From Craspedostauros australis (lineage: Eukaryota), in NCBI GenBank assembly GCA_030167865.1, contig JALAGF010005957.1:1-33525 (forward strand): 33,525 nt of DNA. Reading direction: 5' to 3'. A program made the position numbers and the translations under genes. Shown here in pieces: positions 1,633 to 29,154 of this stretch. Every line of letters begins with the position of its first letter. Position 1 is the first letter of the stretch. Below the pieces are notes generated by a model. That model was given only the letters and a program-made list of their open reading frames with translations. It made no database searches and had not been told where the DNA came from.

Positions 1633-3684
1633 TCAGTACACCATCTCCGCGTCACCGGGGTCGCTGTTGCTGCCAAGGTTGTCGGGAATCGCCGACAGCG
1701 GGTTGCCGCCGTTGCGCCGGGGTTGGCCGCGTTCCGCGTCGCGCTGCTTCCTGTTGCGGAAGGCGTGGCTCACCTTTTCGCGCCCATCGTAATCGCTGAC
1801 GAGCACCCAGTCGTTGTCATCGCCGCGCTTCAGGAACCTCCCACCTGCGGCCTTCACCATCTGCACGATCCCTTTGGAGATGGAGGTCTTGGTGGAGCGG
1901 TCGGATTCGGAGAACACGGGGTAGTACTGGTCGATCCATTCTGACAGCCGCTTGTTGCCCGGCCATTCCTGGAACGGCCGTCCGCGTCCCAGCAGCACGT
2001 CGTTGGGGTGCGGATATTCAATGGCCTCCGCCCCCTCCCGCTGCTGCTGCTGACGCTTTTGTTCCTGCTCCTGCATCTCCAGCAGATGCCGTTCCTGCAA
2101 CCATGCGAATGTCCTAGTGATGTCACGGTTGCCGTGCGAATCCACCGGCAGGCCATCGGCGCTGATCCCGAACGTCATCAATGAGTACTGGCATTCCGTG
2201 TGGGAACCTGGTGTCGATGGTTCGGAGAAGATGAACCAGACAGAGTAGAGCAGAAGATGATTGCGGTGAGACGGAGGTGCATTCAACGTGCATTCAATGA
2301 ATCCAACGTGCATTCAACGGGCATCCAATGTGCATGGGCGAACGACATCATCAATTCGAAGGGAGTCGGCTCTCACGAGGAGCCCTGACGAAGCAAGCAA
2401 GCATGTAGCACGCAGGCAAAAGAAAGAAGCACGGACGATGCGCTTACCGTAATGCGTCCGGAACCGCAGTCGGTTGTTCCTCCCCAAGGCCAGCTGCGCC
2501 ACAGCCAGCGCTGGAAGAAGCTTGGGGTCATTGTAACAATAGTGGACGGCCGTGTTGCGAATGGGGGTGGCATCGACCATCTTGGTGGTGATCGTCATGA
2601 CCTGCCGATCCAGCATGGAATCCCTGAGGACGTCAAATCCCACGTTGTAGAGAATCAACACTGTGCCTATCTTTTGGGATAGATCATCTTCCGCCATGGC
2701 CTCCAGGAAGTAGCATGTTGCACGGAACTGCGTGCCGGTCCAGATCGCGAAGATACATGCAATGGCACATGCAAGGACAGATCCAAGGGAAGGTGCAAGA
2801 GGAGAAAAAATGCGAAAGTGAGAGACTGCGGCACCTTGCCAATACACCCCAGTCCATTTCAAGAACCTACGCAATCGCATGCGCCATACACGATTCGTAC
2901 GTACCAGGTCCTGCCAAGTGTCGTAGCGCTGATACTTCTGACAAGCAGCGTAGCAGATGCGGCCTTTCCTGTCCCTGTTGGGTAATTTGGTGAGCGCCCC
3001 CGTCTTGAGATAGTCCATGCCGCCATCCCCAATATCCTGCAGCGTGATCTTCTTGACGAGCTTCTCGAGGCCGAACAGCTCGAGCTTGAACTGGAAATGT
3101 CTGACGAGGCGTTCCGCGGCCTTTCGCGTGTCGTACTGTTCCGTGCGCAGGAAGAGGAGCTTGTAGTTGCGGGCTTGGATGAAGCTGGGGGACATGAACA
3201 TGGCGCGCTCGTAGGCGGAGCGTTGCTGCACCTGCTTGAGCTCGTAGTCCATTTCCGTGAGCTTTGCCTTGAGGAGGTCCGGCGTCTCCTCCGTTTCGTT
3301 GGCCACCCCGTGAACCTGCTCGTAGACGCGGTTGCGTTCCTGCACGCTGAGCTCGTTCATCTCCTTGGCCAGCATCCTGTCGGTCTCCGTGAGCGGTATG
3401 TCATGCGCCGAGGCGACCGATCCGTGGCCCAGGAATTGGTGGTCGTCGTTGGATGCGGAACCGGCCGAAGTTGCTGCGGATGCATTGGAGGAGACCGAGG
3501 CCGTGCCGATGTTGGTTGGGTTCCAGTTGGGCGTGAAGCACGATCGGGTCCTGCTCTGCGAGAAGGAGACGCCCTGTGGGAACTGCGGGTTGTACTGCTG
3601 CGCCGTCATGTTGGTCTGACTGTTGAGACTTGAGCGGTTCGGAGCAGACGAGAAGCAGCTGTTGCCAAGGGATCCGCTGTCCAT
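1633..3684 (-). CDS. Diatom-family protein with CRAL-TRIO/Sec14-like region and C-terminal DUF6824 domain (~544 aa); exons 3684-2905, 2727-2448, 2207-1633
   Basis: Motifs ELSVQERNRVYEQVHG and LLFLRTEQYDTRKAAERLVRHFQFKLELFG; spliced RFRTHY-G-SHTECQYSLMTFGI; DUF6824-type PHPNDVLLGRG...WPGNKRL...GGRFLK...W......REKVSHAFR. Donors GTACGT (2904) and GTAAGC (2447), CAG acceptors (2728, 2208), frame preserved. Start chosen as the first in-frame ATG. Confidence 0.82.
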
Positions 3685-3907
3685 GATTGCGGTCGAGGTG
3701 AGTGGTTTGAATGTTGTGGATGTTGTGAATGTTGCAATTGCGTTGGCTGCCCGTATAACTTCTGAAGCTTGCCTTGTGCGCACAGGATCCTGCGGCTGTT
3801 GTTGTTGGTGCCGCCGGAGATGCTTTGCATCTGGACCTGAATCTCCCAGACACGCAATTGGCTTTCGCTTCACTTGGCTCCACCGTGATCCAATCCCAAT
3901 GCGGTGC

Positions 3908-5929: not shown

Positions 5930-8191
5930 ATGAAGGTCCTTGCCGTTCTGTTCGTCATTGCCGCATCCCTGATTTCGGTCAGCGCGTTTGCTCCACTCCC
6001 TCCATCCACCACTTCCACCACTTCCACTACCTCCACTGCCTCCGCATGGACAGCCTCAAAGCAGATCGATCAATCATCGACGCAACTGCACATGTTCGAT
6101 GGCATCTTTGATGGCATCTCAAAGGCCATCTTCGGAAGCACAGATGCGGAGATCACGGAGACGGTCTACTTCGACATCGACATCGACGGGGAGTCCGCGG
6201 GACGCATCGAGATGGGACTCTACGGTTCGACCGTCCCCAAGACCGTGGAGAACTTCAAACAGCTCTGCACCGGAGAGCCTGGATTCGGCTACAAGGGATC
6301 CACCTTCCATCGTGTCATTCCGGGATTCATGTGCGTGCAATATCACAATCATCATCACAATCATTATCACATTGACAACAGCAGCTCCAACGAATGCATT
6401 CCATTTCTTCGTGCACATCAACTCATCTATCTCCTTCTTTTTCTTCTTCTGCTTCTGCGTCTGATCCACAATCTCATATGATATCTCCATCTTCCAATTC
6501 CATTCTCTAACTTGTGCATTCGTTCATTCATTTATTCATTCATTGATGTTCTTGATCACGCTCCACCATTTATTCCAATTCTTCGGCAATACTGCAACGA
6601 TGCACAACAGGTGCCAAGGTCAGTGGAGTGCTCTGCAATGCTCCACCCGCACATTGAGTGCGATTTCAAGACTCTTCCCTTGAATACTCGTAACGCGTTG
6701 TACATGCCATCGCGTTCGTTCTCGCGTGAGCAAGCTCTGCTCTTCAGCCTTACGTACAAAGGCAACGATCAAGTTGGCGTCAAAACGCTTGGTTTTGTTT
6801 TCGTCACATCGACTGATTTCCATCTCTTTCATCGCCCACCCTGTTACATGCCGATACACACGACCGCATGCTCTCACGTCCACTTTGTCTCTCCCAATCC
6901 TCCTTCTCAAATCCCCGTTCCACCCACAACACTTGCCTGCCCGCGTATTGCCGACTGCGTCCTGCGTGCCGTGCATTCCCACAGGCGGTGACTTCACCAA
7001 CGGCAACGGAACGGGCGGCAAGAGCATTTACGGACGAGTCTTTGATGATGAGAACTTCGACCTCGCCCACGGAGGACCAGGTACGTCTCCATCCGAAATG
7101 CGCTCGTGGTATTGTGCAAGTAGAGAGACGACTGGTGCACCGATATCCTCGAGAGTATTTGTACGACTCTTCCACTCTGGCCTTAGATAGATCCATGATG
7201 ATACAGCTGGGTATCGCATCATGCTTTGCTTGATGCTGTGCTTCTTCTTCGCAATGTATCGTTGACTGACTTTCACACTCACGCTTCCCCCGTCGTGCTT
7301 CCGTGCCTACCGACAATGCAAAAACAACGCCCTGGCCGCAACCAAACGCACACCGTGTGACGACTCGACATTATCCCTCTGCCAATTGTACGCTTCAGGA
7401 ACACTGTCCATGGCCAATGCTGGACCTAACACCAACGGGAGCCAATGTGAGTACTCTACAAGTTCGGAAGGCATGTGCCGAGTCGATGTGCTGCGTGTCG
7501 GTCACGCTGCGTGCATCTATTCTTATGCACATTTGGTGGCGAAACGCACTGCATGTGTGCATCGTCGCGTGGTGTGGCGTTGCGTTGTGTGGCGTCTCCT
7601 GTCATGCAATGTCACGGCTGCTGAGATATATCATCCATGTGATGGATGAGCGGCTTGTGCCGCAGGTGGTTCCGACAACAAGACATGCGTGATGGAGCCA
7701 AGCATCCCGTGCACACATTTGGCAACGATTCAGTTGCTGCGCGGTATCGTGTCACACGCCACGCCATTGCAAGCCATTTCACCCCATGCAATTGCACCAC
7801 ATAGCCTCGTGTCCTTTCCCTGCTGCGTGTTGCGATGGATCACTTCTTCGATCCGCTGATCCACCATCACTGCAACAGTGAACATGAACATGAACTTGAA
7901 CACTAATCGCCACCTTCTGCCACTGTCGCGATTCTATTCGATTCTATGACACTATTGCCATCCGCACCATTCGATGTCCACACATCATCCACGCACACAC
8001 ATACATGCATCCACACCACAAACGCTGCAGTCTTCCTGTGCACCGCCCAGACGCCATGGTTGAATGGCAAGCACACCGTGTTCGGCAAGGTGACGAACGG
8101 AATGGACCTCCTGCGCAAGATCGAGACCTACGGAACAGAGATGGGCCGCCCAAAGGCCACCATCACCATCGCCGACAGCGGTACCATTTAG
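5930..8191 (+). CDS. Plastid-targeted cyclophilin-type peptidyl-prolyl cis-trans isomerase (~237 aa); exons 5930-6330, 6611-6618, 6985-7080, 7399-7446, 8031-8191
   Basis: Signal peptide ending VSA-FAP (ASAFAP motif) plus an S/T-rich transit peptide. The spliced product reads [80 protein letters not shown]...[40 protein letters not shown]. All four introns are GT-AG and phase-consistent. Confidence 0.95.
6611..6618 (+). other. 8-nt micro-exon (GTGCCAAG) of the cyclophilin
   Basis: Context acag|GTGCCAAG|gtcagt. It supplies (AT)G TGC CAA G(GC) = M-C-Q-G, restoring the conserved FMCQGGDF motif and the reading frame. Confidence 0.88.
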
Positions 8192-8854
8192 ATCCGTGCA
8201 CCATGGTATGGACCAAAAGAGGATCCATGCGTATGGTAGATAGGGGAGTGACTATGCAACTGAAGCGCAGAAATGTGACCAAGAAAGATGTGCCCACCGT
8301 TGATCATGCGCATTCAGATTGAAATCTCCAGCCCTCTCACTCTCTTGGGAGACTCTTCCACGATGTGTGGATTCTCAGAGATCGTCAACCACATAGAGCA
8401 GAGTAGAGTGCTATTGCTGCTTCCCTCCAAAAACTCGTGGATTCGAGCTAAAGCTAGAGACTGATTGAAGAACCAATACGATCTACCTGCATACTCGCAG
8501 AGTTCTCTACACTGGCGAGCAGTCTACCGTGTGATGACCATCTCGTGGTTTTGTTCTTCGCGCGGTCTGTCCGTCGCACGGAAAGTGCGTAGACACCAAC
8601 GAAAAAGGGATCCTCGTGATTCACTGTTTGCGCACATCGAACATCAACTCCGCATTTCTCCACTTGTTGATACAGTCCATTCCCATCGTTCACTGTCCAT
8701 TGTCTAACCCACAGCCAAATATTACATAATATTACAGAATACCTCTATATTAACGTACACCAGCACTGTCACCATGACCATCACTACCTGCAGGAATGAG
8801 ACATCTTCAACAGGCAAGAGTAAAAGCAGCAGCAGAAGCAAGGACGCCAGCACC

Positions 8855-9739
8855 ATGAATTCTGTGATCTCGCTGGCCGGCAGCAAGCTGAAGTCCAAGA
8901 TGGGCGCCCGTCTCAACGAATCGGCAGCGACGGGACCGTCCGAATTCGCCCGCCTGCAGCTCGAGAAGATGGGTTGGAAGGAGGGCAGCGGGTTGGGAAA
9001 GAACAAGCAGGGCATCGCGACGCACATCCGCGTCAAGAAGCGCATCGATGAGGAGGGCGGATTGGGGAAGAAGGATTCTCATCTCGATGCCTCCGTCAAG
9101 GGCGTCATCGGGAAGGAGTGGTGGAAGTCGAGCGTGGGAGATACCTTGGCTCGGTTGTCTGGTGGCAAGTCCAGCACCAAGTCTAGTGGCAAGTCCAGTG
9201 GCAAGTCCAGTGGCAAGCGAGAGAAGAAGGCCAAGAAAGAAAAGAAAGCAAAAAAGAACAGCAGCAAGCGCAAGCGAGAGTACACGGACGAGGAGCTCTT
9301 CCAGGCGACGGGCGGTGCTCGGTTTGGAATGCGAGCGCAGTCGCGTCAGGCAGGCAAGTGGCAGCGCACCGAGGCCAGAAGCAAACGGAGGCTTGAAGAG
9401 GAGGCCAATGCCAGGAATGCGGTGGAATGGAGCGGGCAGGGAGAGGCCATGGTTGTGCTTGGCACCAACGGAAAGCGCAAACGGTGCAAATCATCAAAGG
9501 ATGATGAGGGGAGCGAACCAATGGGCGCAGCTGCGGCTGGGGGAGAGACGCAAAACAGCGTCACACGCACAGATGGTAGCGCGCAACATACCAGTATTGG
9601 TAGCGACGGCAAGAGCGCAACGCCAGAAGGGCAGACGGTCGCGAAGGACACGGCGAAGCAACAACAGAAGAAGAAGAAAGACAAGAAAAGCAAGAAATCA
9701 AAGAAGTCAAAGAAGAGCAGAGATGCGAAGGTGGCGTGA
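8855..9739 (+). CDS. G-patch domain protein (PinX1/Pxr1/GPATCH4-like, probable nucleolar Prp43/DHX15 cofactor), ~294 aa
   Basis: G-patch SEFARLQLEKMGWKEGSGLGKNKQGIATHIRVKKR...GLG, then WW, a TDEELFQATGGARFGMRA motif and K-rich tails. An alternative upstream ATG lies at 8774. Confidence 0.85.
   Translation: MNSVISLAGSKLKSKMGARLNESAATGPSEFARLQLEKMGWKEGSGLGKNKQGIATHIRVKKRIDEEGGLGKKDSHLDASVKGVIGKEWWKSSVGDTLARLSGGKSSTKSSGKSSGKSSGKREKKAKKEKKAKKNSSKRKREYTDEELFQATGGARFGMRAQSRQAGKWQRTEARSKRRLEEEANARNAVEWSGQGEAMVVLGTNGKRKRCKSSKDDEGSEPMGAAAAGGETQNSVTRTDGSAQHTSIGSDGKSATPEGQTVAKDTAKQQQKKKKDKKSKKSKKSKKSRDAKVA
9158..9217 (+). repeat. 12-bp coding tandem repeat encoding (SSGK)-like x5
   Basis: tctggtggcaag tccagcaccaag tctagtggcaag tccagtggcaag tccagtggcaag. 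Confidence 0.8.
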
Positions 9740-10521
9740 TGGAGTGTGGTTGAATGTGACTGAGTGCATTTCCACTAACGTGGACGTGGGCACGATGGTG
9801 CATGGTACAGTCATGCTGTGCAGCCATGGTTCCATCTTGTCGCCGATGCAACTGCGCAGAAGGCTCAGCTCGGCATTCTCTCCAGAGTAACCCCAACCGC
9901 ACGCGCATACAACAATGGCAGAGACACTTGCGCAACTGATGATGCAACGATATGGTGCGCCCCTTATGGTACAGGCCGGTTGGGATGCACAAAGAGGGTT
10001 CTTCGGCACCATGCCGTTCCCTCGACTCGTACAGACCCACCAGCTTCAAAGCGAGGCCGCGTAAAAGACGGAATGCTCTACTTGTCACGTGCTCCACGTT
10101 CCCATACCTGTGTGGGGTTGGTACAGTACAAGTACTCACATTGGTTCAAAAGTAGAACTCGAAGCACGTTGACAATCAACACACTCGCACACGCGTTCTT
10201 TCCCTACATTCATTGATGTATTCGTTTCTTTGATTCACTTGAGGATTATTGTAAACCCACCGGTACAGATATTAGAAGGCAGGAGCACATAGTCCGTAGA
10301 GCGTCACATCAGTGCGCAGACTCACGCACACCTGCCATCGAGTGTTGATGCGTGGCATAGTAGCATGCCACATGATCCCATGCCATCGCCGCTGGTGACT
10401 TGGTCCCATACGATGACACTACGCGGCCATCCAGCCCCGCCGCTTCGTTCCCTTTCTTTCCCAAAACCCTTGTCACTGTCACTGACACCCATGCCCATCC
10501 ATTGTGGTATGAGTGTTGGCA

Positions 10522-12350
10522 TTAGCCGTTGGACGGTGCCGGACCTTGGTTGCCACCCATCGGTGGTGGCTGGGGCGATCCATTTGGCGGGGGCATTCCA
10601 GGTCCCTGAGGCATCGATGGACCGGGACCGTGGTGGTGCATGCCTCCTGGAACACCGGGTGGCATGTGATGCATGCCGTGTGGTGGGGCACCGTAGGGTC
10701 CGTGTGGCAGAGGTGGGCCGGGATGCTGCATGCCATGTGGTTGCGGCGGTCCCTGATGTGGATGCCCTGGATGCGGTCCCTGCTGTGCGCCGGGATGGCC
10801 GTGGGGGTGTCCATGCGGGTGTCCATGCCCGTGTGGCGGCGGCGGTTGCTGATGCTGGAATTGTTGCATCTGGAACTGCTGCCACTGCAGCTGTTGAAGC
10901 TGCTGGTTGAAGACCGGGCTCTGATGTGCCAGCTCGCCCGGGTTCATCCCCTGCATCCCCATCATGGGGTTCATGCCTGGCATTCCCATGGCACCCATCC
11001 CAAAGGGCATGCCGAAGGGCATGTTGCCCATGGGTGCCGGCATGATGCTCTGCTGCTCCTGGAACTTGGAAGAGCTGTGGCTGCTCATGCGGAGGCAGAG
11101 GGAGCGATCTTCCCTGACGAAGAACTTGTGGTAGTACGATCCCATCTCCGGACCGCGCGTGACGCGGGTGAAGCCCCACCTGTTGAGCTTGCGCGTGAAG
11201 GAGGTGAACTTGGTGGCCTTGAAGTATTTGGGGATGACCTGCAACGCGAACTTCTTCTTCTTGTAGATGATGAAGGATCGACCGTGCGGCAACCAGGCGA
11301 TCGTGTCCTCCTGTTCAGGCGAAGACAGGATCTCCATCAGCTGTAATTGGCCAGAATGAATACAGGAATTTATGAATATATGAGTGCATGCAAGTGCGCG
11401 GATGGAGACATGCACAATCGTGATAGATGCTCTGTCCAAAGTAATCGATACGATCACTGTCGTGATCACCGTCACGATCACCGCTACAGTGCAGTTGTTG
11501 CAGCGATCACAAGTGGTCATGCTAGTATTCTTGACTGACAAATACTGTGCCACAGCACAGCACGTAGACACCACAGCACGTACACAACACTTCAATACAC
11601 CGAAGAGATACTTGATCACACCCATTGTACCGCATTGCATCGCATCGCATTGCACTTCCTCGTATCACACGCACAGAGTAGTTATCAAGCAGAATCTGCA
11701 ACGTGACTTACCACCTGCGGGAAGGTCTTGGGTGCTTCATCCTCCATCTCCTTGATCGTCTTGGGCTCCACCCTCTTGAGGTTGGTGCCGTCCGTGATGA
11801 GGGCGTACGCCTGACGTTGCTGCTCGGCCCTGTCCTCTTCCGCAGCCGCAGTCTCCGCCGCGGACGCCTCTGCAACCATGGTCGGCTTGGGCTCGCCTTC
11901 GCCGCCTTGCTCCAGAGTTGGTGGAAACGCGGCTGGCTGTTCCGCGAGGTTTGCATCCGCAGCACCAACGGGAACAGCAGCTGCGTTGGGCTTGTCGCCT
12001 GCAGCTTGCCCCTCCGCGGGTTCGTTGGCGGTTGCCGCAGGGGGCGCAGCGGGTGCTACCACCACAGTGCCGACGTTCTCCGTTCGTTCTGTCTTGACGG
12101 TGCCTCCTAGCGGAACTGCGCTGTCCGCGGCGCTGGTGGGGTCCTTCTCATCCTTCTGATCTGCGATAGGTGCAGCTTCGGCCACTGGTGCGATCGCCGC
12201 ATCGATGGGCACCACTGTTGATGGTCCTTGCGTTTCTGGCGCATCGCTCAGAGGGTCTTCGATCGCATCTGCCATCGCATCTGCCATTGGATCGGTCGTC
12301 GGGTCGGCCGCTGCGTTGGTCGCTGTTGCTGTCGGTCTCTCGGATTCCAT
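10522..12350 (-). CDS. Heat shock factor (HSF-type DNA-binding domain) paralog A, ~485 aa; exons 12350-11712, 11340-10522
   Basis: Spliced TFPQV|LMEILSSPEQEDTIAWLPHGRSFIIYKKKKFALQVIPKYFKATKFTSFTRKLNRWGFTRVTRGPEMGSYYHKFFVREDRSLCLRM. Donor GTAAGT 11711, acceptor TTACAG 11341, phase 0. A/E/P-rich N-terminus and M/G/P/Q/H-rich C-terminus. Confidence 0.93.
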
Positions 12351-13316: not shown

Positions 13317-16300
13317 TCAACCCTCCAACAGCGCATCGAGCTTGGAGAACTCTTGCATGGCGTTGTTCACGGCAGCGGTCATCTTTCGTCGCCGGGTTCG
13401 GCGTGACACCTGGAACGCAGCTGGCGCCTCAGCGTCGCCATCGGTCACGAAGAACGTCTGCGACAGTCTCTTCGCGGCCGACGTCTTCGTTTGCTGCATG
13501 TACGAGACTTGCTCCGATCGCTTCGCTGCTTTGTTGCCATCCAGAGGGGCCAGAGGGTTGCGGGAGGAACCTCCAGGGGTCTCGTGTGCGCCGTTCTCGT
13601 CTTCCGCCTCGCTGACGGCGCCTTCCACAATGCCGCCACTCGTAGTCATGGTTTCCTTTGGCTCTTCATCCGATGTGATGCTGGCGAAGGGATTCGCGGC
13701 ATGGCTGCGTGGGAGCACAGCATGTGACGTCGCTTTGATGCTGCCACTACCACTACCACTGCTATTCCTATTGCTATTGCTGTAGTGCGCTCGCAGCCGG
13801 TCCTTCAATTCGGATTTCTTTCCTGAAACTTTCAATCCCAGAGAACGGAGACGATTCTTCAGCTCGATCACCTTCAGTGTGTCCAAAGAGGCTTCGCGGT
13901 CCTGTGAAGGAGCAGCTGGCTCAACGGCCAACAGTGTTGGCTTTTTCGGGCCTCCAGATAGCACGCCAAGCTTCGCTCTTGGAGGGTCATGAGGAGTGGT
14001 GGGCTTGAGCCGCGGAGCGGGGGCCTTGTTCTCTTTATCCTCCGTGACTGCGAGTTGTGATGTCTTGCTTGTCGTGCTCTCTTCTCCCAATGCCCCATCG
14101 ATGGACATGCTGTAGATGACAAGATGGTTCATGGCGATCACCAGACACAATGGAAACAACCGAATTGAAACGAATTGAAATGAAATAACATGAATGGAAA
14201 TGCAGTGTTAGTTCCGTGATCAATATCTGACGCAACGGTGCCTTTTGGTTTCTGACTCTGCACCAGACGGCGAAGAACAGCAAGCGTGGACATGGACAGG
14301 CACGCAAAACAGATGCGGGCAAGCACCACAGACCAAAGCAGACATTGGTCGATCGCACTCATCGCATTCGTGTGCGTACGTGTATACGTATTCGAATGCA
14401 TCGCACGGCACCAATCTCAATCACTCCCCCACTCTCACTGCCACTTCCACTCGCAGCCCCATTATCAATACATACTTGTGAACGGAGATGTCCTCCTGGA
14501 TGCTTTGCAAATCTGCATGCTGCAATTGCTTCCCTTGCGGCTTCTTGGCCTTCGCGCCTGGCGTATCTGGACTCCAGTCGCTGTCATTGTGATCTTCGAT
14601 GTCGCCATCCTCGCTGTAATCATCACCATTGGCACCAGCATCATGATCGCCATCGGTGATGCGGAATGAGACCGGGTGACCATCACCCATCATTGCATTG
14701 GCAGCGGAAGGATGCTTCCTCTGCTTCTGCTTTTTCTTGACGATTCTCTTCTCCGTGTTGGAAATCATCGTCTCCGCCACTTCGTTCACGATGCTCTCCA
14801 TGCTGGCCTGCCTCTCTTGGACGGTGTGAAGACACATGCGGATGTTGGCAGCAACGGAATCACATTCCTCCCAGTATGGCTGCAGGAGCTCATGGATCCG
14901 GTGTGCCACGTCTTCGTTGCTGGCGTGTTCGCTCAGCTGCGCCTTCATCTCCACCTCAAGAGTGTTGCGTGTGGAATCCAACAAGGACGCCATCTCCTCC
15001 GCCTGCTCGATCTGAAGGTGCAGCATCTGCTCCTCGTTTCGTTTCCGTTCCTTGGACACGGCGGTCTGCACAGCTTGCGCCGTCGCGGTGGCATGCTCCG
15101 TCTCCATGGATTCGTTGCGAATGTTCGAAAACACGAGCCGGCGGAAGATGTCCACACACATGACGTTGAGATCGTCGGTGGACACGCCCTTGTCGCCCAT
15201 TTCGTACCGTTCCGATGAGGCATTGAATCGGAACAGCGCCCTCGACTCATTCATGGACTGCTCGATGGCATCGATATTCTTGCGCAGCTCATGGACGGTG
15301 AGGTTTCGCTCTGTCATCTCGCTATCGCTCGTAGCATCCTCCGCATCAACGCTGGATGATCGTGTTCGGCGCTGTTGGACTTCTTCGATCACCTTCTGTT
15401 GCTGTTCGAGTTGCGTTCGCAGCTTCTGCAGAGACACCATCGTCGCTAGAGCATTGTCAACGGAGGACGCCAACTCATCCGTGTGCCCAGCGCTAGATGT
15501 ACCATTCGCTGGTGAGGCTCCACGTGAGGAGGTGGACCTGGCACCGTGCGAGTTCGTGTGCGCGTGCGTATGAGACTTGCTATCGGTGTTGCCAGAGTGG
15601 TTTCGGCGGCTTCGACTGGCATGATGATCAGCCTTGTCCTTGTCGCGGAGGTCCTTCAGCTTCTTGCGCAGCGCATCGGCTTGTCGCTTGGCGTTGTCGC
15701 GAACCTTCTGCAGCTCCATCTTCAGCTTCGTACTGTCACGGACCAACTTGGCGGCCTGCTTCTTGGCCTCCTTGCGCTCGCTGCGTCTCTCCTCCGTCTG
15801 CTCCTTGAGCTTCTTCTGCAATGCCGCGCGGCGCTTCTTGTCGTTCTCAATATCCTTCGACAACTTGCTGCATTTGGTCTCCGCCATCTGCTTGAGTCGA
15901 AGGCACTTCTTGTGGCTTGCAACCTTCGACTTCAGATCCTGAATCTTGGTCTCGAGCTGCTTTACCTTCTTCTGGAGCTTGGATTCTGCGGAAATCTTGC
16001 TGTTGGTGTTTGCGGACCGTTTCGTTGATGATTTCTGCCTCTCCGATTTGAGCTGTTCGATGGCATCCTCCTTTTGGGTGAACAGGGCCTTCTCCTCCTC
16101 GTTGAGACGCTCCAGGGCCCGCAGGAAGTGCGTCCGCATTTTGTCCATGCATTCCTGCTCTTGGTTGGCACGCTGGATCATCTCCTGCTTCTTCTCGATA
16201 TCTTCGGTCAGGTTGGCCAGTTCGGACGTCAATTCAACCTGGTTGGCGAGATGGGCATGCTCATCAGTGTCAGTACCATCAGCGCCACTCCCACCATCCT

Positions 16301-19657: not shown

Positions 19658-21175
19658 ATGATGGACGGCGTGGGTGTCGCTCTCTCTGCTCGGAGGACGG
19701 CTGGCGCTTCATCGAGGAACTCAGCGACGATCAGGTCCCCCGCTGTGTCGTTCATCGGTGCCGTGACGCTAGCTGCCTTTGGCAACGCGTTGATCGGGAT
19801 CGACTCCATTGGGTTCTGCGAGGCGATGAGCCAGCCGGCATTCTCCCAGGCCATCAAGGGGAAGATGATCCTCGCCCCGTTGACGCGCGGAGGCAACCTC
19901 CCGTTTCGTCGGCTGTGCGCGGACTTTGGCATGGAGGTGTCCATGTCGGAGATGGTGTACTCCCGCCCATTGCTCAAGGGCGACCGCATCGAGCAGGCCA
20001 GGTTGAGGAGGGCCAGCAACGAGCAGCTCTTCGGAGTGCAGATTGCGACCAAGCAGATCGACGAGGGCGTGCGGGCCATGCGAATGGCCAAGGAGGCTGG
20101 GGCGGACTTTGTGGATCTCAACTGCGGGTGTCCCATCTTCGACGCCACCAGGCGCGGTCTCGGCTCCGCCTTGCTGCGCCAACCCAACAAGCTCGGCCGT
20201 TTGGTGGAGGGCATCGTCCAGGAATCCCAAACCGGCCTGCCGCTGACAGTCAAGATCCGTCTGGGCTGCTGCGCCGACACTATCAACGTGCGGAGAGTTG
20301 TGAGCACCCTGCGCGAAGCCGGAGCCTCCGCCGTCACCATCCACGGTCGGACGGCGCAGCAGGGATACGCGAGGTCGGCCGACTGGGACCTCATCAATCA
20401 GGTCGTCGTGGACGGTCAAGAGTCCGGCAGTGACATCCCCATCGTTGGCAACGGGGATATCCTCACGTACTACGAGGCGAGGCGGCGGATCGAGGAGTCC
20501 GGCGTCGACAGCGTCATGGTCGGTCGCGGGGCCTTGATGAAGCCGTGGATCTTCCAGGAGTTCCGCGATGGCATCGACTGGAGGCCGGAGATGGATGATC
20601 GCATCGCGGTGTACCGGACGCTCACTAGGTACATGAAGGACCATTTTGGCGATGATGACTGGGGACGCAAGAAGGCTTGGAGATTCCTGCCGTGGCATTT
20701 CCACTTCTTGACGAGGTACAAGCCGTACCCGGAGGATCAGTTTGGCGAGATGTCGAAGGAGAAGCCCTTGATCCACGATCGGTTCGGCATCCCCGAAACG
20801 ACCACGCCTCTGGAGACGCTGATGTATCACAGGAGCGAGAAGACGCACGATCTGATCTCGCATTGCCTGTGGGATGCCGATTCTGATGCGGACGCGGTGA
20901 GGCGATTGAACGATCTTGCGGAGAGCCACACGTTTAAGGAGATTCTGAATGAGCAACCGGAGGAGACAGAGGACCCCACCACAACTGAATTGGCCAACAT
21001 ACCGAAGGGTGACGGAAAGAAGGGCCATCAACCGAGACGGAGCCGCAATCCAAAGCCAAAACGCACTCCGGAAGAGATCGCGGAAATTAGAGCGGAGCGA
21101 GCTGCGAAGAAAGCCAGGCTTGAGGCCGAAGCTGCCGCCGCCGCTGTTGCGGCTACGAGCGGCGCAGATCTGTAG
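19658..21175 (+). CDS. tRNA-dihydrouridine synthase, DUS3-like FMN-dependent catalytic domain (start uncertain: 19658 or 19826)
   Basis: LAPLTRGGNLPFRRLC, SEM, VDLNCGCP (catalytic Cys), G.GSALL, TVKIRLG, TIHGRTAQQGYARSADW, GNGDI, VMVGRGALMKPWIFQE; single long ORF. Confidence 0.9.
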   Translation: MMDGVGVALSARRTAGASSRNSATIRSPAVSFIGAVTLAAFGNALIGIDSIGFCEAMSQPAFSQAIKGKMILAPLTRGGNLPFRRLCADFGMEVSMSEMVYSRPLLKGDRIEQARLRRASNEQLFGVQIATKQIDEGVRAMRMAKEAGADFVDLNCGCPIFDATRRGLGSALLRQPNKLGRLVEGIVQESQTGLPLTVKIRLGCCADTINVRRVVSTLREAGASAVTIHGRTAQQGYARSADWDLINQVVVDGQESGSDIPIVGNGDILTYYEARRRIEESGVDSVMVGRGALMKPWIFQEFRDGIDWRPEMDDRIAVYRTLTRYMKDHFGDDDWGRKKAWRFLPWHFHFLTRYKPYPEDQFGEMSKEKPLIHDRFGIPETTTPLETLMYHRSEKTHDLISHCLWDADSDADAVRRLNDLAESHTFKEILNEQPEETEDPTTTELANIPKGDGKKGHQPRRSRNPKPKRTPEEIAEIRAERAAKKARLEAEAAAAAVAATSGADL

Positions 21176-21545
21176 CTACGAGTATCATCCATGGTCATGA
21201 TGCGACAGCTTAGTTTTTGAATTGATCAGTCCCATACTCTGATTGTTGTAATAGGTCATCGAGTTGAGCGCGACAATGGAGTACGTTCGTCCTGTGCCCA
21301 TGATGTGTCCTATTCAGTGCGAGTCCATGTTCTGCTCCCCAGAGAGTGAACATGGCAGATGGTGAACATCGCATGAAAGAAGGAATGAAGGAAAATGACG
21401 TGTCTGATGTTCTAGGTTGTAACTATGAGTATGTCGTTGCATACTCGTGCTCGAAGTGTTGGTAGCCGTAGTCGTACTCATACCCAAACTGATTCTGGTG
21501 CTGGAATCGTGCCGCTGTGTGACGCCAAGACCTCTCCGTCCGCAT

Positions 21546-24288
21546 TTAGTTGGCCTCGGAGGCCTTCTTGAGCAAGAAGATCTGGCTGAGAGCATCCTGG
21601 ACTGCGGCATCCGGGGTGGATGCTCCGGATGTGACACCCATGACGACGTCCTTGTCGGTATTCAGGAGGAATTTCTCCGTCTCGATCTCGCCTTTCGTGT
21701 TCCTGTGCGTGATAGTGTTGTCCGCCGAGATGCACTCCGCTCTGTTGATGTGGAAGGATCGGACACCGGCCATCTGTGGGATCTCGAGCAAGTGGGCGGT
21801 GTTTGATGAATCCCAACCTCCAACGACGAGGATGAAGTCCAAACCGAGCTTCTCTGCGTTGTCGACCAACTCGGCCACGGCGTCTTGTCGTTCCTGTTGG
21901 CCATTGTAATGCATTGCATTGTATTTCGTTGGAGGTACGCCATCATTCCATCAACCGATCAAATATTCATTCAAAGAAAAATAGGTGAATAAACACACGG
22001 CAGGTGTGATTGATGTGACGGTGAGATGGCCATGCGTGCAAGGATGCAAACAAATGAATAAATGAACTTGACTCTCTCCGTCTATCGCTAATGCCGGCGT
22101 TGAACGTGATTGACGCCCGATGCGCAACGGCCCACGTGCGGTATCCAACAAGTAAGGGAAGAGAATAGCAGCAACAGCAACGACAACAGCAACGACAACC
22201 GCAGCGAAAATTGCGACATGGGCAGACTTACCTGCGTGGCATCGCAGATGGTGTCGAACTCCAAGTAATGCTCGCTGATGTTGCCTGGCCCGTACTTCTT
22301 GATGAGGGTGGTCTGGAAGAGCTGTCCGATGGCCCTGGTCTCCTTCTTGTACATGGTGGTCTGGTTGGCGAGACCGACCTTCTGGAGCATGGTGTCTGGA
22401 TCGAATCCTTCGCTGATGGCGTTCTCGAAGTGCTTGAGGAAGGCCTCCTTGTCGCCTCCGTTGGCGATGTAGTCGGCGACCATCTCGGCCTCTTTCATGT
22501 TCTTGACGCAGATGTAGTCCTCGCAGAAGCTGGTGGTGGCGACGGTCTCCTCGTGGGCGTACTTGCCGTGGATGATGGAGGTGTGTCCCTTGCGCTGGTG
22601 GGCGTCGACGGAGTTCCAGACCTTGGACACCCATGGGCAGGTGGTGTCAACGATCTCCACATTCTGCGCGGCCGGTCAATCGGGATGGTAGGGTGACGCG
22701 TTTTGGTGATGAAGTGTTGTGAGGGCAAGTGTTCAGCGCACATGGGCAGACATACCATATAGTGCATGGGTGGCAACAACCTCGATCAGCGCGCGATACG
22801 ATGACAGGGAATCCATGTGACCTCTGCACACTCCATTTGTTGCATGAACTGACGTGCCAACGCGGTGATACACTGAGATGCGACAACATTGGAATCCCCC
22901 CACACAATTGATACCAGCACTGACCTTCTTGTCGAAGTATTCCATCTCCTCGAGGGAAGCACCGAAGGCGGGAAGGATGACGACGTCGCCATCCTCCACG
23001 ACCTCGAAGTCCTTCTTGCCCTCGCCCAGCTTCTCGATGAGGTTGACGTTCATGTCGGTGAGACGATCATTGACCTCCGGGTTGTGAATGAGCTCGTTGG
23101 TGATGTGCAGCTTGCGGTCTGGGAAGTGTTCCACGGCCTCGTAGGCCAGCGCGATGCTGCGCTCGACGCCCCAGCAGAATCCGAAATCCTTTTTAATGCG
23201 AACGGAAATGGCAATGGGTGGTGGTTGCGTGATGCGGCGTATGCAATGCAGCGTGATATGCCATGATGTGTAAGCGCGCCGTCCCATCAAGCGATGTAGG
23301 GGCATACCACAAGAGCGCCGACGAAGAAGAGGAGAACATGAGAAGTGACCATGAAGTGAGAATATGAAGCCGAACGGAAGGCATATCGCGGGATATCATG
23401 TTGGATATGGCAAATCGCATTGTCAACGTGGCAACGCTGCTGGTTATCTCGTGAGTTGATGGCCGAAAAGATCCAAAAGAGGAAGAAAGGAAGGCAGTAG
23501 AACAGGGTGTTGCATGGTATGGTATGGTATGGTATGGTTTGATATTCGTTGATGCGATGAATTTGGAGACTCCCACAAGATTGTTGAAGGAAATCCAACT
23601 CCGTCGCATCGCATTGAATTGCATTCCATTCCAAGAGGCCATCACTGAACGAATTCGGTGTTCTGAAGGCAATAGCACAGTTGCTGCGTTCCTCGATTTG
23701 ACACCATGATCTGCATGGTAAGATGGGAGGAGCCATGAATTGCCACTTTTGGCGCCAAACCGAGGCCTGCAAGCAAGAATCCTTCACTTTTGCCTTCAAT
23801 TCTGCCTTGAATGCGATCTGAATGGGACCTGAATGGAAGGAGAGAAAGCAATCGCAGATCGACATGAACAAAGGCATCCCAAGAAGCACCAAGATGGGCA
23901 CCCAAAGAGGCAACCTCCACAGATCTGAGATCTAGAGACACACCTTGGCAAGGTAAACCTTGACGCCATCCCTGTCGATGGAGTACTCGTTGCTGCGGAG
24001 CTCCTGCACGAGATCCGAATTGTACTGATCCTGCACGCTCTGCTCCACCTGATCGCGCACTTCCTTGAATCCCCTGCGATGGAACTGATCGCTCTTGAAG
24101 AAATCGAGGCGCGCGGCCTTCTTGGTGCGGCGCCTCTCCTCCTGCTCCTTTTCTGTGGTGGAGAACAGAGCGCTGGTGCTTGGAGCAGAGGCGACCGCGG
24201 ATGCGCTGGAGCTCGGAGTGGGAATCACGAATGCTTCCGCGCAGGCGCTGCTGGCCACCAGCAAGACTGCGGATGTTGTGAACTTCAT
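21546..24288 (-). CDS. ispH: 4-hydroxy-3-methylbut-2-enyl diphosphate reductase (HDR/IspH/LytB), plastid MEP pathway, ~462 aa; exons 24288-23944, 23188-22925, 22663-22232, 21893-21546
   Basis: Signal peptide ending AEA-FVIP and a cyanobacterial/plant-type N-terminal region (FHRRGF). The three Fe-S cysteines lie in [16 protein letters not shown] and [11 protein letters not shown]; also [37 protein letters not shown]. Three phase-0 GT-AG introns. Confidence 0.96.
23514..23538 (+). repeat. (ATGGT)5 microsatellite in ispH intron 1
   Basis: atggtatggtatggtatggtatggt. Confidence 0.85.
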
Positions 24289-24732
24289 TGTGTCTTTGTC
24301 TTCTTTGTCTTTTAATAATATTATAGATCGTAAGTTGTTGCTGTGATGAGCCTGGATGAGGTTTGATGAGACGAGATGCGATCCTCGTGTGGCCCTTGGT
24401 GACTTGTTGATGTGTCCGTCAATGTAGTAATACGTGTTGATCGAATCTCTTGATGTGTTTGCTGATGCGCTTGTTTGGCTGTGACCTGTTCTAGCGCGGG
24501 TGTCGGAGTGATGTTGGGGAGACCTTCTCGTCTTTTCTCTCTTCCACGTGACGCCACCACCACCACCACCACCACCAACAACGACAACGACGACCAAACA
24601 CAACGAGCACCATCCACGATTTTGCTTGGCTGTTCCAACACATTTGATCGCATGAGTCAACCACGGATCGAACTTCAACTCAAGCGTCAGATCGTGAAAA
24701 TGCCTCTGTTCGCTCGCGCTCTCTGCTTGAAC

Positions 24733-24742
24733 ATGACGTCAT
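24733..24742. promoter_or_regulatory. ATGACGTCAT (CRE/aureochrome-type bZIP site) upstream of ispH
   Basis: Perfect 10-bp palindrome ~445 bp upstream of the ispH ATG; motif match only. Confidence 0.3.
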
Positions 24743-24959
24743 CAATGTCGTCATCACGACTGGACACGGGTATGCCTCACAAAATGCGTTCGCAAAAAGC
24801 CAAAACCCGAACAACGGAAAATGTGCAGAAACACAAACATCAACCTCCAACGCGACAAGTCCTCGCGCGGGCACTCGAGAGGTGCACACAACCGTCATCG
24901 GAATGCCAGGCACGCACGAGCGTAATGCTGCTAATACTATTGTTGCTTGCATAAGGTTC

Positions 24960-25060
24960 TGTATTAGAGCCTATTAAAATATATAATAGAATAGCTATAT
25001 TAGCATGGTACTCTGCTTTATTCTATTGTAGAATATAATAGAATACTATTGTATTAGATT
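24960..25060. repeat. AT-rich island sharing motifs with the island at 3908-4050
   Basis: CTATTAAAATATATAATAGAATAG (24971-24994) vs CTATTATATTATATAATAGAATAG (3914-3937), 22/24 identical; both are followed by TAGAATATAAT..AGAATAC. Confidence 0.55.
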
Positions 25061-25210
25061 GCATTGTTACTCCACCAGCCTTGTACATGTTGGCCAAGGG
25101 CATCTGTCTTCACGACAATATCGCCAACCAACCGACGACAAACTGGTGTTCGGAATATGTTCGATCACTGCGTCGCGCTGTACGCCTATGATGTCGGCGG
25201 CTGCTTTTTG

Positions 25211-28200
25211 TTACTCCTGCTGTTGATGCCGCCCATATTGTTCGTGCTCTCGTTGCGAGTTGTCTTGGAATAGATTTCCACCCTGTTGCTGCTGCTGCTG
25301 CTGCTGCTGTTGTTGCTGATGACGATTCTGCGGCTGAATCTGAGGGTCCATGTTGGCCACCATCATTAGCAAGTCTCGATTCGGCTCCAGCCTGGGCTCG
25401 GCGTACACGTCACGTCCTTGCCTGTGCGACTGCAGGATTTGGTACGGCATGGAGATAGACGAACCCGGCAATCCCCCAAGACTGTCCGAAGCAGCTGCCT
25501 GCTGCGTCTCCTGCCATGTCTGCTGCATCGATTGTTGCATCGATTGTTGCCACGCTGATCCCTGCAGCAACTGAATCTGGCGCGGCTCCTGTCCAGACGA
25601 CGACGACGACGAGGCAGCAGCAGCGGCGGCGGTAGCCGCCAGCGTTGGATTCTCGCCAGCCAAAGGACCGACAGCGCCTGCTCCGGTCAACGGACCAGAA
25701 ACTGATATGGCGTCAGCTGAACCAGTTCCAAAGAATCCCGCGAGTGATGGGTTGACCCCAACCCCAGGTGTTCGGTTCGTTCCATCCACACCATCCGAAG
25801 GAACCCCACCGCGAAAGCTACTGCGGTCGATTCCTTCCATTCTCCCGTGGAGATCAGTCTGCCTTCCAGACGATGCGATCCTTTGGGCCGCATGCTGCTG
25901 CAATCGCAGGTCGAGGTCGGTGATGCCATCGAACGGATGTGATCCTCCCTGGGTGCCCCCCTTCCCCTTGTCAAACCCATACTGCCGCCTCAAGAGTTGA
26001 TCGAGCGAATACTGACCCATCATGGCCGTGATTGGAGGGTAATCGCAACTCACATCTGGCTGCGGCTGGCCATCAGCACGGACGCCAGAGCTGCCGATGC
26101 GGCTGCCATTGGGATTACTACCATGCTGTGGCACTCCGACTTGATGTGCTTGGTTTTGCATTTCCTGGAGATGTAACTGCAGCGGAAGTGAGAGCTGATG
26201 CTGCTGCTGCTGCTGCGGCTGCTGCTGCTGTTGTTGTCGGCTGTGCTGTCCCTGTGATTGTGGTGCATGCTCTACGTGCTGACCATAACCGTGAACTCGC
26301 CTTTCCAGAGCCATCTGGAGAATATGGTTCGCGGATGACACGTTCTCATCGAACATCGTGCGATTGAGGTTGGAGGCGCCAAGCTGGCCCTGCGCCCCCA
26401 TCTCATCCGGTGCTCTCGTTCGCCCCTGCGCCAGCCTTGATTGTAGTTGCAGCATCGTTTGGGCTGTGATATCCGCCGTTGGGCCCACGAGTTGCTGAGA
26501 CGATTCTAGGTCTTGGGGCGCGTTGGGCATTTGGTGGGCTTGGGTTGGTGCTTGTGCGCCTGCTGGCGTTTGCATCTCTGCCTGTCTCTGCGGCTGTGTT
26601 CCCGGATACATTTTCATTGGTGTTTGTGCCTGCGCTTGTGTTTGTATTTGGGCTTGCATCTCTGCCTGCAGTCCTCCCTGCATCCCTGTCTCCAACCCCA
26701 CGTGCAACGCTCCCTGGTTCTGCAGCTGCGGCTGCATCTGCTCTTGATCTTGTTCGCGTTGCGGCGTCAACCGAGTGTTGCGGCCGCCCTGCGGGACGAT
26801 GAGGCCCAATGCGATAGGATCCATGGGCTCGATCTGCTGAGGCTCTTTTGAGCCGATGCAATTCATTTGCAAACAGAGGCGCAAATTGCCTCGTTGGAAC
26901 ATCGGGTGGTAGTAGGCGCCCGTTTCTGGCCCTCTGGTTACTCGTGTGAAACTCCTTCATTCGTTGCGCAAGAGTGCATACCATGCCATGCACACCAATC
27001 ACGGCAACAGGATGGCGTGACGATGAATGCACATGTACCACAGGTAGCAGGAATGCCAATTTGGCACAGATTTGAGTGCCAACCGAGCATCATCCCAAAC
27101 GGCGATTTCAAAACAAAGATGGCGTCCGAGTCAGATGGCAGGGCATACACGTACACGCGCGCACACACACGTGCATCAGCGCATCAGTCACATTGGAATT
27201 GAAGAGTTAGTCATGCGAAGTGATAAATTGATGCACAGCAGAAAAAACAGGAACTGACTTGTCGGTGTCATCTCTGTGCCGTAGCGTCCGAATATCTTTC
27301 ACTGGGCCGGATCGCAATGGAGCATCAAACCGCAATGCATGCGAAGTGTTAGCCTGGGAGACTGCAACCTGACTTCCATCGTTCACAGGCGCAGCTGACG
27401 TGCTTCCAAGGTCTTTGTGACTCATGTTATAACGTATTGAAGATTTAACGTGCGCATGAGCGTTCCCATAGATGGACTTGAGGGGAGGATTTCATTGCAG
27501 TACAGGCTCAACCCCGAGGCAAACTCCCTGATGATGGAAACCAATAGAAGCAGCAACAGCAGCATCAACAGCAACAGTTTGTTCAAGACATGAAGCGCGA
27601 TAGTACAACGCAGTTGCGAGTCAAGTTGCTTCTGCTTGCTTACCATCTGTTGAGCTTTCGCTGCGGGTGGTCCATTGTTACCGAGCGTTCCAATGAAGAT
27701 GGGAGCGGGCAGAAGCAAGCATTCGGTCAAAAAGAGTTGAAGAACGCCAATAGGCAAAGCAAGTGAGTACGATGCGTCTTCGATCTGGCTGTCCACGCAA
27801 GTATCTGATGAAGGAGGTACGCACAGGAAGACCATACCCATTCCGTCACAGGATGACACACCAGTGAACACTTCAGCAGCCAACACAACGCCATGATACC
27901 TTTTGCATCATGCAGTATGGTACAAGCAGCATACGAGTACATGAGAAAGCCAAAGAACATGAAGCCCCACAAGTTGCGAATAGTGCCATCCCAATACTTG
28001 AACGTATGACTCACCGTGAAGCTCGTGAATTTTGCTTTCTTGCTGAAGTAGTGTGGCATCACCTCGGTTGCAAAACGGTGCTTCTGCAAGATGATGAACC
28101 CTTTGCCGTGTGGTAGCCATGATATGATGTCAGAGAACTTCTCTGTGGAGAGAATCTCCATCATCTTTGTTATCAAACATGTTGGTTCCAACAACAAAGG

Positions 28201-29154
28201 CAAGGTCAAGGTCATGGACAAGGGCAGGAGAGTGTCGGCATGTACAAACGCGTCGGAAGGCGTGAGATGTGAATAGTGCTGTGTACCACGGCGGCGTGTT
28301 GGATTGCCCAGCCAATATCAATATCATGGCACCATCGCTGGGCATCTCGTGAGATCCGCAAGTGTCGACAACAGCATTCGTATGGACTGCCTCATTCGGC
28401 ACTCGTCTTGCGTGGCACGAAGCATTTGTACATCAACGTATCTGCAATCCTTGATGCGACAAGAAGCCAATACAATGGGGTCCTGAGGTTGTGACTGATG
28501 GCCCTCGTACAAGCACTCGTCCTTGCAGAGATCGTATTTGCGTATTGGTGCTACTCGTACGCATGCGACAGCCAAGTGCTGTGGCAAGAATGCTCGTGAA
28601 CGTGGCCGTGAACGTGGCCGTGAACGTGGCCGTCAACGTGGGAACGATAATTGACGTGTACACACTCTTACCTTTTGCGGGAATGTCATTGGCGCACTTG
28701 CATCGGCACATGACAAGGTACTGGAGTCTTTGTCTTTGTCTGACTTTTGGCCTGTGCGTTGCATTCCCAATGGCAACTTGCTCTCAGGTGTCGATGTAAA
28801 CAGCGGAACGGCGTTTGTCATTTCATTGGTCCACATTCGTTGCGATGCCGACGTTGAACTTTCGTCGTCAAGCCGATGATCTACCCGGAGCAAATCCTCG
28901 GCAATCGCAAGCTGGTTCTGATTGTGATATCCGTGCTGGCTCTTCCGTTGCTGCTGATGCTGATGCTGATGCTGATGCTGTTGCTGACCTTGTATTTGCT
29001 GATGGTGCTGCGGTGGCTGTTGCCATCTCTGAGCCATGTCTTGAGGAGAACTCAGTGTGGTGGTCTGACGATCATGTTGGGCATTCCCTTCTTGTCCCAT
29101 CCGTCGATTCCCATCAGGCTCGGGCGGGTCGAGAGGCACATTGTCATCATTCAT
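25211..29154 (-). CDS. Heat shock factor (HSF-type DNA-binding domain) paralog B, ~797 aa; exons 29154-28672, 28164-28015, 27660-27644, 26954-25211
   Basis: Spliced TFPQK|MMEILSTEKFSDIISWLPHGKGFIILQKHRFATEVMPHYFSKKAKFTSFT|RKLNRW|SFTRVTRGPETGAYYHPMFQRGNLRLCLQM. Donors GTAAGA, GTGAGT, GTAAGC; acceptors AAG, CAG, AAG. Long Q-rich C-terminus with polyQ. Confidence 0.9.
27644..27660 (-). other. 17-nt micro-exon of HSF paralog B encoding RKLNRW
   Basis: Minus strand ccgcag|CGA AAG CTC AAC AGA TG|gtaagc encodes exactly the missing recognition-helix residues, which are contiguous in paralog A. Confidence 0.92.
28595..28641 (+). repeat. 12-bp tandem repeat (CGTGAACGTGGC)x~4 in HSF-B intron 1
   Basis: cgtgaacgtggc cgtgaacgtggc cgtgaacgtggc cgtcaacgtgg. 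Confidence 0.85.

Follow-up and report, generated by a model that had tools for sequence, protein, structure and literature searches.

In the canonical architecture of an intron 3′ end, the branch site is located 18–40 nucleotides (nt) from the AG, and a pyrimidine tract lies between them. The selection of the first AG and the existence of AG-exclusion zones are likewise established. The present analysis concerns 14 introns on contig JALAGF010005957.1 of Craspedostauros australis (assembly GCA_030167865.1), situated in a stretch of 33.5 kilobases (kb) that was analysed as a whole and is called the window here. In these introns, a long AG-free zone precedes every acceptor, and candidate branch sites mostly lie about 100 nt upstream of it.

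The mean distance between branch point and AG is 31.5 nt in mammals and 27.6 nt in Arabidopsis, according to the cited passages of Irimia and Roy (2008, PMC2483917), which also describe a constrained distance fixed at 2–10 nt in Yarrowia, Trichomonas, and Giardia, and branch motifs of the CTRAC/CTRAY type in Phytophthora. The cited part of Gooding et al. (2006, Genome Biol 7:R1, PMC1431707) describes verified human distant-branch-point exons, such as PTB exon 11, GABBR1 exon 23, and alpha-tropomyosin exon 3, in which the branch site and a pyrimidine stretch are situated toward the 5′ part of the AG-free zone and the first downstream AG is the acceptor. In the same passages, 838 of 67,334 human introns (1.2%) have zones reaching 100 nt or more, and these are associated with regulated alternative exons. 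In Saccharomyces cerevisiae, introns with a long distance from the branch point to the 3′ splice site need RNA structure, as far as the cited passage of Gahura et al. (2011, NAR) describes them. Literature searches, with supplements outside their scope, turned up neither a study of branch points or AG-exclusion zones in diatoms nor a genome described as having distant branch points as its rule.

AG depletion at the intron 3′ ends

Reading both strands in three frames rebuilds 14 GT..AG introns in six genes of the window: two in a DUF6824 gene (DUF_1 and DUF_2), four in a cyclophilin gene (CYP_1 to CYP_4), one in HSF-A (HSFA_1), one in a kinesin gene (KIN_1), three in ispH (ISPH_1 to ISPH_3), and three in HSF-B (HSFB_1 to HSFB_3). 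The introns are 177–755 nt long, with a median of 360 nt. Upstream of their acceptors, the AG-free lengths range from 87 to 297 nt with a median of 155 nt; the zone measures at least 100 nt in 12 introns and at least 87 nt in all 14. The preliminary description of this sequence had reported these lengths, the range of intron lengths, and three AAG acceptors at 23189, 26955, and 28165. On rebuilding, every acceptor and every AG-free length came out identical, as did the range, and the three AAG acceptors are confirmed, each following A-rich sequence. An AG-free stretch of 87 nt or more precedes merely 55 of the 3844 AGs (1.4%) on both strands of the window.

When the last 100 nt of the 14 introns are pooled, AG occurs 3 times against 50 expected, whereas GA, composed of the same bases, occurs 49 times against 50. 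Within the last 50 nt, AG is missing entirely, against 26 occurrences expected from base content. The ratio of observed to expected AG rises from 0.06 over the terminal 100 nt to 0.59 at −200 to −100 and to 0.75 further 5′; the step is clear, but the level upstream of it still stays below 1. Measured upstream of position −3, the exclusion zone of AG has a minimum of 86 nt and a median of 154 nt, compared with medians of 4–22 nt for the other 15 dinucleotides. In addition, the terminal gap is the longest AG-free gap of the intron in all 14 cases.

Base composition had to be controlled, since long AG-free runs exist outside the introns and other dinucleotides also form long runs. Both strands of the window together hold 35 AG-free runs of at least 100 nt, of which 23 lie elsewhere than in these introns, often antisense to purine-rich coding sequence, and for several other dinucleotides, too, long runs exceed the number expected under a uniform model. 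Runs of 160–221 nt are situated antisense to coding sequence (G-patch, HSF-A, and HSF-B) at 9539–9759 (−), 10713–10888 (+), and 26510–26669 (+); such antisense runs probably arise because the sense strands are rich in purines. Counted without annotation, AG-free runs of at least 100 nt number 1.04 per kb in the window versus 0.61 per kb in the contigs of relatives, both above the simple expectation, and this count is non-discriminating.

The zones exceed those of mononucleotide shuffles made per intron (Fisher combined p ~1e-25) and also those of dinucleotide shuffles keeping the AG count of each intron (combined p ~3e-16; individual p 0.0005–0.086). The shuffled controls that the preliminary description had called for, applied to the 14 introns of the window, thereby leave zones that are longer than composition gives and specific to AG. 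The AG depletion is real, AG-specific, and concentrated at the intron 3′ end.

Candidate branch sites and pyrimidine placement

The distribution of the motif CT[ACG]AC along the introns was compared with dinucleotide shuffles made separately for each zone. In the last 55 nt, the motif occurs 0 times against 3.2 expected (P = 0.04). Within the AG-free zones beyond 55 nt, it occurs 14 times against 7.0 expected (P = 0.01), and upstream of the zones 3 times against 9.0 expected (P = 0.013). Twelve of the 14 introns carry a copy in the zone beyond 55 nt, against 5.4 expected, a number reached by 0 of 1000 shuffles. In these 12 introns, the copy nearest to the acceptor is located at 56–176 nt, with a median of 101.5 nt. 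Furthermore, eight of the 14 introns contain exactly one CT[ACG]AC in their whole length, and this copy lies in the AG-free zone.

Pyrimidines are concentrated after the motif and not beside the acceptor. Of the 30 nt that follow the candidate branch A, a fraction of 0.70 is pyrimidine. The 30 nt preceding the acceptor and the 30 nt preceding the motif both reach just 0.56 (Wilcoxon p = 0.002 and p = 0.006, respectively, against the stretch after the motif). Among the bins within 200 nt of the acceptor, the bin from −22 to −3 is the poorest in pyrimidines (fraction 0.55) and the richest in A (0.27). The stretch after the motif is an enrichment of pyrimidines and not a long uninterrupted tract. 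The 14 introns thus lack two marks of the canonical proximal architecture, having no CT[ACG]AC within 55 nt of the acceptor (0 of 14) and no pyrimidine tract adjoining it.

These observations indirectly support distant branch points in the 14 introns, and we infer that the CTNAC motif is the branch site used. The six branch-like motifs named in the preliminary description are found with the coordinates and distances given there. Its proposal of distant branch points fits the motif distribution, the AG depletion, and the pyrimidine placement.

ispH introns of relatives

A metagenome scan with one ispH exon, which samples this one gene, returned 80 loci; the relatives show 59–84% identity over the query exon. 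From seven interrupted loci (L002, L013, L024, L036, L054, L072, and L048), 11 distinct introns were obtained; L008 and L039, which show pairs of high-scoring segment pairs (HSPs) without an intron model, and L016, a duplicate of L013, are excluded. The relatives' introns are 43–185 nt long, with a median of 106 nt, versus 261–755 nt for the ispH introns of the window, and the introns of the window as a whole are about 3.4 times longer (medians 360 versus 106 nt). Six of the 11 are situated at the same positions as the ispH introns of the window. These positions, after residues 115, 203, and 347 and all of phase 0 in the window, recur among L002, L013/L016, L024, and L036; the subsets of introns differ between relatives, and many homologous contigs have none.

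In the relatives, CT[ACG]AC is present in nine of the 11 introns, usually once, and its nearest copy lies 19–47 nt from the acceptor in eight of them; in one intron the nearest copy lies at 86 nt, upstream of a CT repeat. A copy within 55 nt of the acceptor thus exists in 8 of 11 relatives' introns versus 0 of 14 in the window (Fisher p = 1.5e-4). The median AG-free zone measures 42 nt in the relatives versus 155 nt in the window. The AG-free share of the intron length is similar, with medians of 0.53 in the relatives and 0.44 in the window; therefore, the long zones look like a proportional stretching of an ordinary architecture. A distant branch site is no general property of diatoms, since the closest ispH relatives hold the motif at 19–47 nt in eight of 11 introns. 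The suggestion of the preliminary description that the introns partly lengthened between branch point and AG is in agreement with the short orthologous introns of the relatives and with the small tandem arrays in the zones.

Junction support

Thirteen of the 14 junctions are fixed at the residue level by homology: proteins or coding contigs align across them without loss or gain of residues. ISPH_3 is additionally fixed by a spliced contig, which makes it the one junction visible in sequence data of the organism itself. In the cyclophilin, the peptides of exons 1, 3, and 5 match residues 3–60, 65–95, and 113–163 of the human cyclophilin A chain 1ak4_A, and the gaps of 4 and 17 residues against this chain are filled exactly by the 8-nt micro-exon, the 48-nt exon 4, and the split codons. 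In ispH, single HSPs of many homologous uninterrupted contigs (for example L001 and L003 at residue 115) span the junctions, which follow residues 115, 203, and 347. A contig of run X1 joins 21892 to 22231, bridging ISPH_3 exactly with 338 nt skipped and CT..AC ends. The spliced DNA-binding domains of HSF-A (one intron) and HSF-B (three introns) are colinear with protein P0002 at every junction; the large HSF-B exon, used as a query for homologs, yielded two distant matches only, one of them P0002. For DUF_1, the alignment of P0003 with the unspliced read-through is interrupted at the intron by exactly 59 residues and becomes a single block against the spliced model, and the DUF_2 junction sits within gap-free alignment blocks of P0003 and P0013. 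KIN_1 is supported by the domain architecture alone: its homolog P0136 (982 residues) holds kinesin, KIF21A-like, and SAP parts in one protein, and the stop-containing stretch between the two open reading frames (ORFs) must therefore be removed. The exact junction of KIN_1 is a modelled one.

The search for runs containing this sequence yielded none that is recorded as RNA; run X1, guessed to be RNA, has a 0.19 share of the words. Over positions 8700–28699 of the window, 12 of its contigs contain one joint, that of ISPH_3, and most introns and exons are uncovered, hence uninformative either way; the upstream ispH exons have no X1 cover. One observation opposes the intron model. The X1 contig that bridges ISPH_3, which is of high depth, stays colinear with the genome for 22 nt past the ISPH_2 acceptor, up to 22685, and ends there (22664–22685, minus strand); it may represent unspliced material, or filtering of the contigs may be responsible. 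Two loose ends of X1 contigs, at 11624 and 16622 (83 and 34 letters), have no match in the window, and two others are short repeat matches. The loose end at 11624 is similar to HSF coding sequence and could derive from a paralog.

Features of the individual introns

In the following, the candidate branch motif of each intron is given with the position of its A and the distance of that A from the intron 3′ end. The DUF6824 gene lies on the minus strand. DUF_1 (2728..2904; 177 nt, in frame, GTACGT..CAG) is AG-free over 2825–2730 (96 nt) and has a CTCAC with its A at 2819 (91 nt). DUF_2 (2208..2447; 240 nt, GTAAGC..CAG) is AG-free over 2369–2210 (160 nt), with a CTCAC at 2267 (59 nt) and an 11-nt tandem array at 2277–2335 within the zone.

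The four cyclophilin introns lie on the plus strand. CYP_1 (6331..6610; 280 nt, GTGCGT..CAG), AG-free over 6385–6608 (224 nt), carries CTAAC at 6507–6511, the A being 100 nt from the end, and is followed by the 8-nt micro-exon 6611–6618. The sole CT[ACG]AC of CYP_2 (6619..6984; 366 nt, GTCAGT..CAG; AG-free 6774–6982, 209 nt) is a CTCAC with its A at 6876 (108 nt). CYP_3 (7081..7398; 318 nt, GTACGT..CAG; AG-free 7207–7396, 190 nt) offers two candidates, a CTGAC at 7269 (129 nt) and a CTCAC at 7281 (117 nt). CYP_4 (7447..8030; 584 nt, GTGAGT..CAG; AG-free 7879–8028, 150 nt) is devoid of CT[ACG]AC, and its candidate is a CTAAT with the A at 7906 (124 nt).

All remaining introns lie on the minus strand. 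HSFA_1 (11341..11711; 371 nt, GTAAGT..CAG; AG-free 11429–11343, 87 nt) is also devoid of CT[ACG]AC, its candidate being a CTCAT at 11381 (40 nt). KIN_1 (14110..14475; 366 nt, GTATGT..CAG; AG-free 14226–14112, 115 nt) connects the kinesin ORF with the SAP-domain ORF and contains AACTAAC at 14213–14207, with the A 98 nt from the end. The kinesin locus as a whole (13320–18476, minus strand) comprises a motor and a KIF21A-like domain, apparently fused through this intron to a C-terminal SAP domain.

In ispH, ISPH_1 (23189..23943; 755 nt, GTGTGT..AAG; AG-free 23436–23191, 246 nt) has a CTCAC at 23357 (168 nt), and its acceptor is preceded by A-rich sequence without a pyrimidine tract. ISPH_2 (22664..22924; 261 nt, GTCAGT..CAG; AG-free 22780–22666, 115 nt) and ISPH_3 (21894..22231; 338 nt, GTAAGT..CAG; AG-free 22066–21896, 171 nt) each contain a sole CT[ACG]AC, in both cases a CTCAC, with the A at 22720 (56 nt) and at 22022 (128 nt), respectively. 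The N-terminus of IspH (24288–23944, minus strand) is signal-peptide-like and followed by an AEAF|V junction similar to the plastid-targeting motif of diatoms.

In HSF-B, HSFB_1 (28165..28671; 507 nt, GTAAGA..AAG; AG-free 28278–28167, 112 nt) has a CTCAC at 28263 (98 nt). HSFB_2 (27661..28014; 354 nt, GTGAGT..CAG; AG-free 27777–27663, 115 nt) has a CTCAC at 27764 (103 nt) as its sole CT[ACG]AC and is followed by the 17-nt micro-exon 27644–27660. HSFB_3 (26955..27643; 689 nt, GTAAGC..AAG), with the longest zone (27253–26957, 297 nt), holds a CTGAC at 27131 (176 nt) and a CTAAC at 27207 (252 nt). The two micro-exons, in cyclophilin on the plus strand and in HSF-B on the minus strand, are each situated between long introns and are each needed for colinearity with the homologs.

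Tandem arrays with periods of 4–12 occur in the introns at 2277–2335, 6517–6544, 14161–14202, 23514–23538, and 28595–28641, the first three being inside terminal AG-free zones. Upstream of the first exon of HSF-B, a stretch at 29545–29737 (minus strand) contains a single AG in 190 nt within a region of little coding potential; an additional intron, in a 5′ untranslated region, is conceivable here.

Gene content of the window

The window has 53% G+C and three N runs. A Pfam scan of its long ORFs identifies a histone, the DUF6824 protein, the cyclophilin, a G-patch protein, two HSF-type factors, the kinesin followed by the SAP-domain ORF, a dihydrouridine synthase, and IspH/LytB. The window is called diatom-like because its homologs include proteins labelled as diatom by their sources, namely from Nitzschia and from an MMETSP Striatella record. 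A codon-usage scan of the window reveals no further clear multi-exon genes; therefore, the intron sample is not enlargeable. An origin of the introns from introner-like or other repeat elements is rejected: an all-against-all blastn of the 14 introns finds matches of just 11–35 nt, the best being a 27-nt low-complexity stretch, and since the introns have no common sequence, they are not copies of one element.

Discussion

The reading that we consider probable, though well short of assured, is that intron expansion stretched the spacer between branch site and acceptor, that CTNAC and its pyrimidines lie about 100 nt upstream, and that the first-AG rule purges AGs from the spacer. The introns of this lineage would have expanded on both sides of the branch site, the spacer included. 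A branch site of the CTNAC type, with a pyrimidine stretch directly after it, would then be situated some 56–176 nt upstream of the acceptor, with a median of roughly 100 nt. At the second step of splicing, the spliceosome would take the first AG downstream of the branch, apparently by a linear search. An AG arising in the spacer would act as a wrong acceptor and would therefore be removed by selection. The outcome would be the AG-free zones of 87–297 nt, together with a tolerance of weak AAG acceptors that have no adjoining pyrimidine tract. The tandem arrays inside the zones fit a growth by local duplication of AG-free units. The preliminary description had seen in the zones an apparent scanning mode of acceptor choice; scanning to the first AG is the established model of the second splicing step and no new mode. 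The pattern resembles an extension of the familiar first-AG rule through the lengthening of introns in this lineage, and the "scanning mode" accordingly represents a known mechanism in an unusual regime. A wider claim, that nearly all introns of the genome have the branch site and pyrimidine stretch about 100 nt or more from the acceptor, with a search that routinely spans 60–300 nt unaided by RNA structure, is possible but somewhat doubtful.

Several points weigh against the stretched-spacer reading. Its sample consists of 14 introns in six genes of one window, and the claim of generality rests on these. The branch sites are candidates read from the sequence, run X1 having given contigs and not reads. 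CYP_4 and HSFA_1 contain no CT[ACG]AC at all, and this motif was defined after inspection of the data, so the motif tests are supportive and not decisive. The 5-mer test is weak: CTCAC occurs in eight introns against 4.45 expected from dinucleotide shuffles (uncorrected p = 0.03), and an unbiased search for enriched 5-mers, of low power with 14 sequences, singles out no branch motif, CTCAC being one of many at that level. The folding of the spacers is no stabler than that of dinucleotide shuffles (mean z 0.01 over 14 spacers), by which a shortening of the spacer through RNA structure is rejected; the DUF_2 spacer alone is clearly negative (z −3.6). Some YTNAY lies within 60 nt of the acceptor in seven of the 14 introns, so weak proximal branch sites may exist there. 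In addition, several AG-free zones begin 60–120 nt upstream of the candidate motif, which is beyond the need of a single branch site.

The last two points would be expected if the branch points were proximal after all, or were many and degenerate over the last 100–200 nt, with AG purged widely as a cryptic acceptor that competes near usable branch sites or in the region of an early-bound 3′ splice-site factor. The zones often reach well upstream of the best distal motif, and an observed-to-expected AG ratio of just 0.59 at −200 to −100 agrees with a purge of this kind. However, in all 14 introns CTNAC, which is 3′-located in the relatives, is missing from the last 55 nt, and it is enriched at a greater distance from the acceptor. 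Within the zone, pyrimidines are scarcest in the last 30 nt and most abundant in the stretch after the distal motif, and the other seven introns have no YTNAY within 60 nt. We regard proximal or degenerate branch points as rather unlikely on this balance.

The zones could also be a by-product of base composition, of mutation bias, or of slippage growth of sequence that was AG-less by chance, with no selection involved. The 3′ parts of the introns are indeed somewhat G-poor and rich in C and T, small tandem arrays exist inside several zones, and 23 of the 35 long AG-free runs lie outside introns. Nevertheless, GA stands at its expectation exactly where AG is depleted, an exclusion zone of this size is peculiar to AG among the 16 dinucleotides, shuffles keeping mono- or dinucleotides are exceeded in every intron, and the arrays span merely ~20–60 nt of zones measuring 87–297 nt, all of which makes an origin without selection very improbable. 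An artefact of the hand-made gene models, with acceptors misplaced at the first AG after an AG-free run, is scarcely credible. The junction of KIN_1 is not fixed to the residue, contigs bridge just one junction, and one contig extends 22 nt into ISPH_2, yet 13 of the 14 junctions are colinear with homologs (cyclophilin, HSF-A, HSF-B, the DUF6824 gene, and ispH), ISPH_3 is bridged exactly, and the zones, being AG-free, contain no alternative upstream AG acceptor.

In the organisms of the passages cited, a few tens of bases separate the branch point from the 3′ splice site, and distant branch points form a small, mostly regulated human minority. If the stretched-spacer reading were true genome-wide, this would be the first known organism with distant branch points as the rule, standing at the opposite extreme to the yeasts and parasites whose branch point keeps a constant distance of a few bases to the AG, and its introns could grow on both sides of the branch site provided that the spacer stays AG-free. 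It would then be a natural system for the long-distance finding of the first AG by the spliceosome and for the changes in second-step factors that allow it. Gene finders and branch-point predictors restricted to the last 50 nt would fail here, whereas a rule of AG-free zones would aid the annotation of acceptors, including weak AAG acceptors and those around the 8-nt and 17-nt micro-exons.

Among the known systems, the human distant-branch-point exons, as described in the cited part of Gooding et al. (2006), share with the window the long AG-free zone at the acceptor, the motif and pyrimidines toward the 5′ part of the zone, and the use of the first AG. In contrast to the human set, 12 of the 14 introns of the window, which look constitutive and are distributed over six housekeeping and regulatory genes, have zones of 100 nt or more. 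Its branch sites are candidates, whereas the human exons are verified, and a long uninterrupted pyrimidine tract is missing from the window. The long-spacer introns of S. cerevisiae, as far as the cited passage goes, likewise possess a strong branch motif distant from the acceptor, but the spacers of the window show no excess folding energy, and their motif is CTNAC instead of a fixed TACTAAC. Yarrowia, Trichomonas, and Giardia resemble the window in a lineage-wide shift of the 3′ intron architecture, judging from the passages cited; the direction of that shift is opposite, a very short fixed distance there versus a variable one of probably about 100 nt here. The ordinary short ispH introns of the relatives have in common with the window the intron positions, a CTAAC or CTCAC motif that is usually present once, and a similar AG-free fraction. 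They differ in being shorter, with shorter zones and with the motif nearer to the acceptor, at 19–47 nt in eight of 11 introns versus 56–176 nt in the window.

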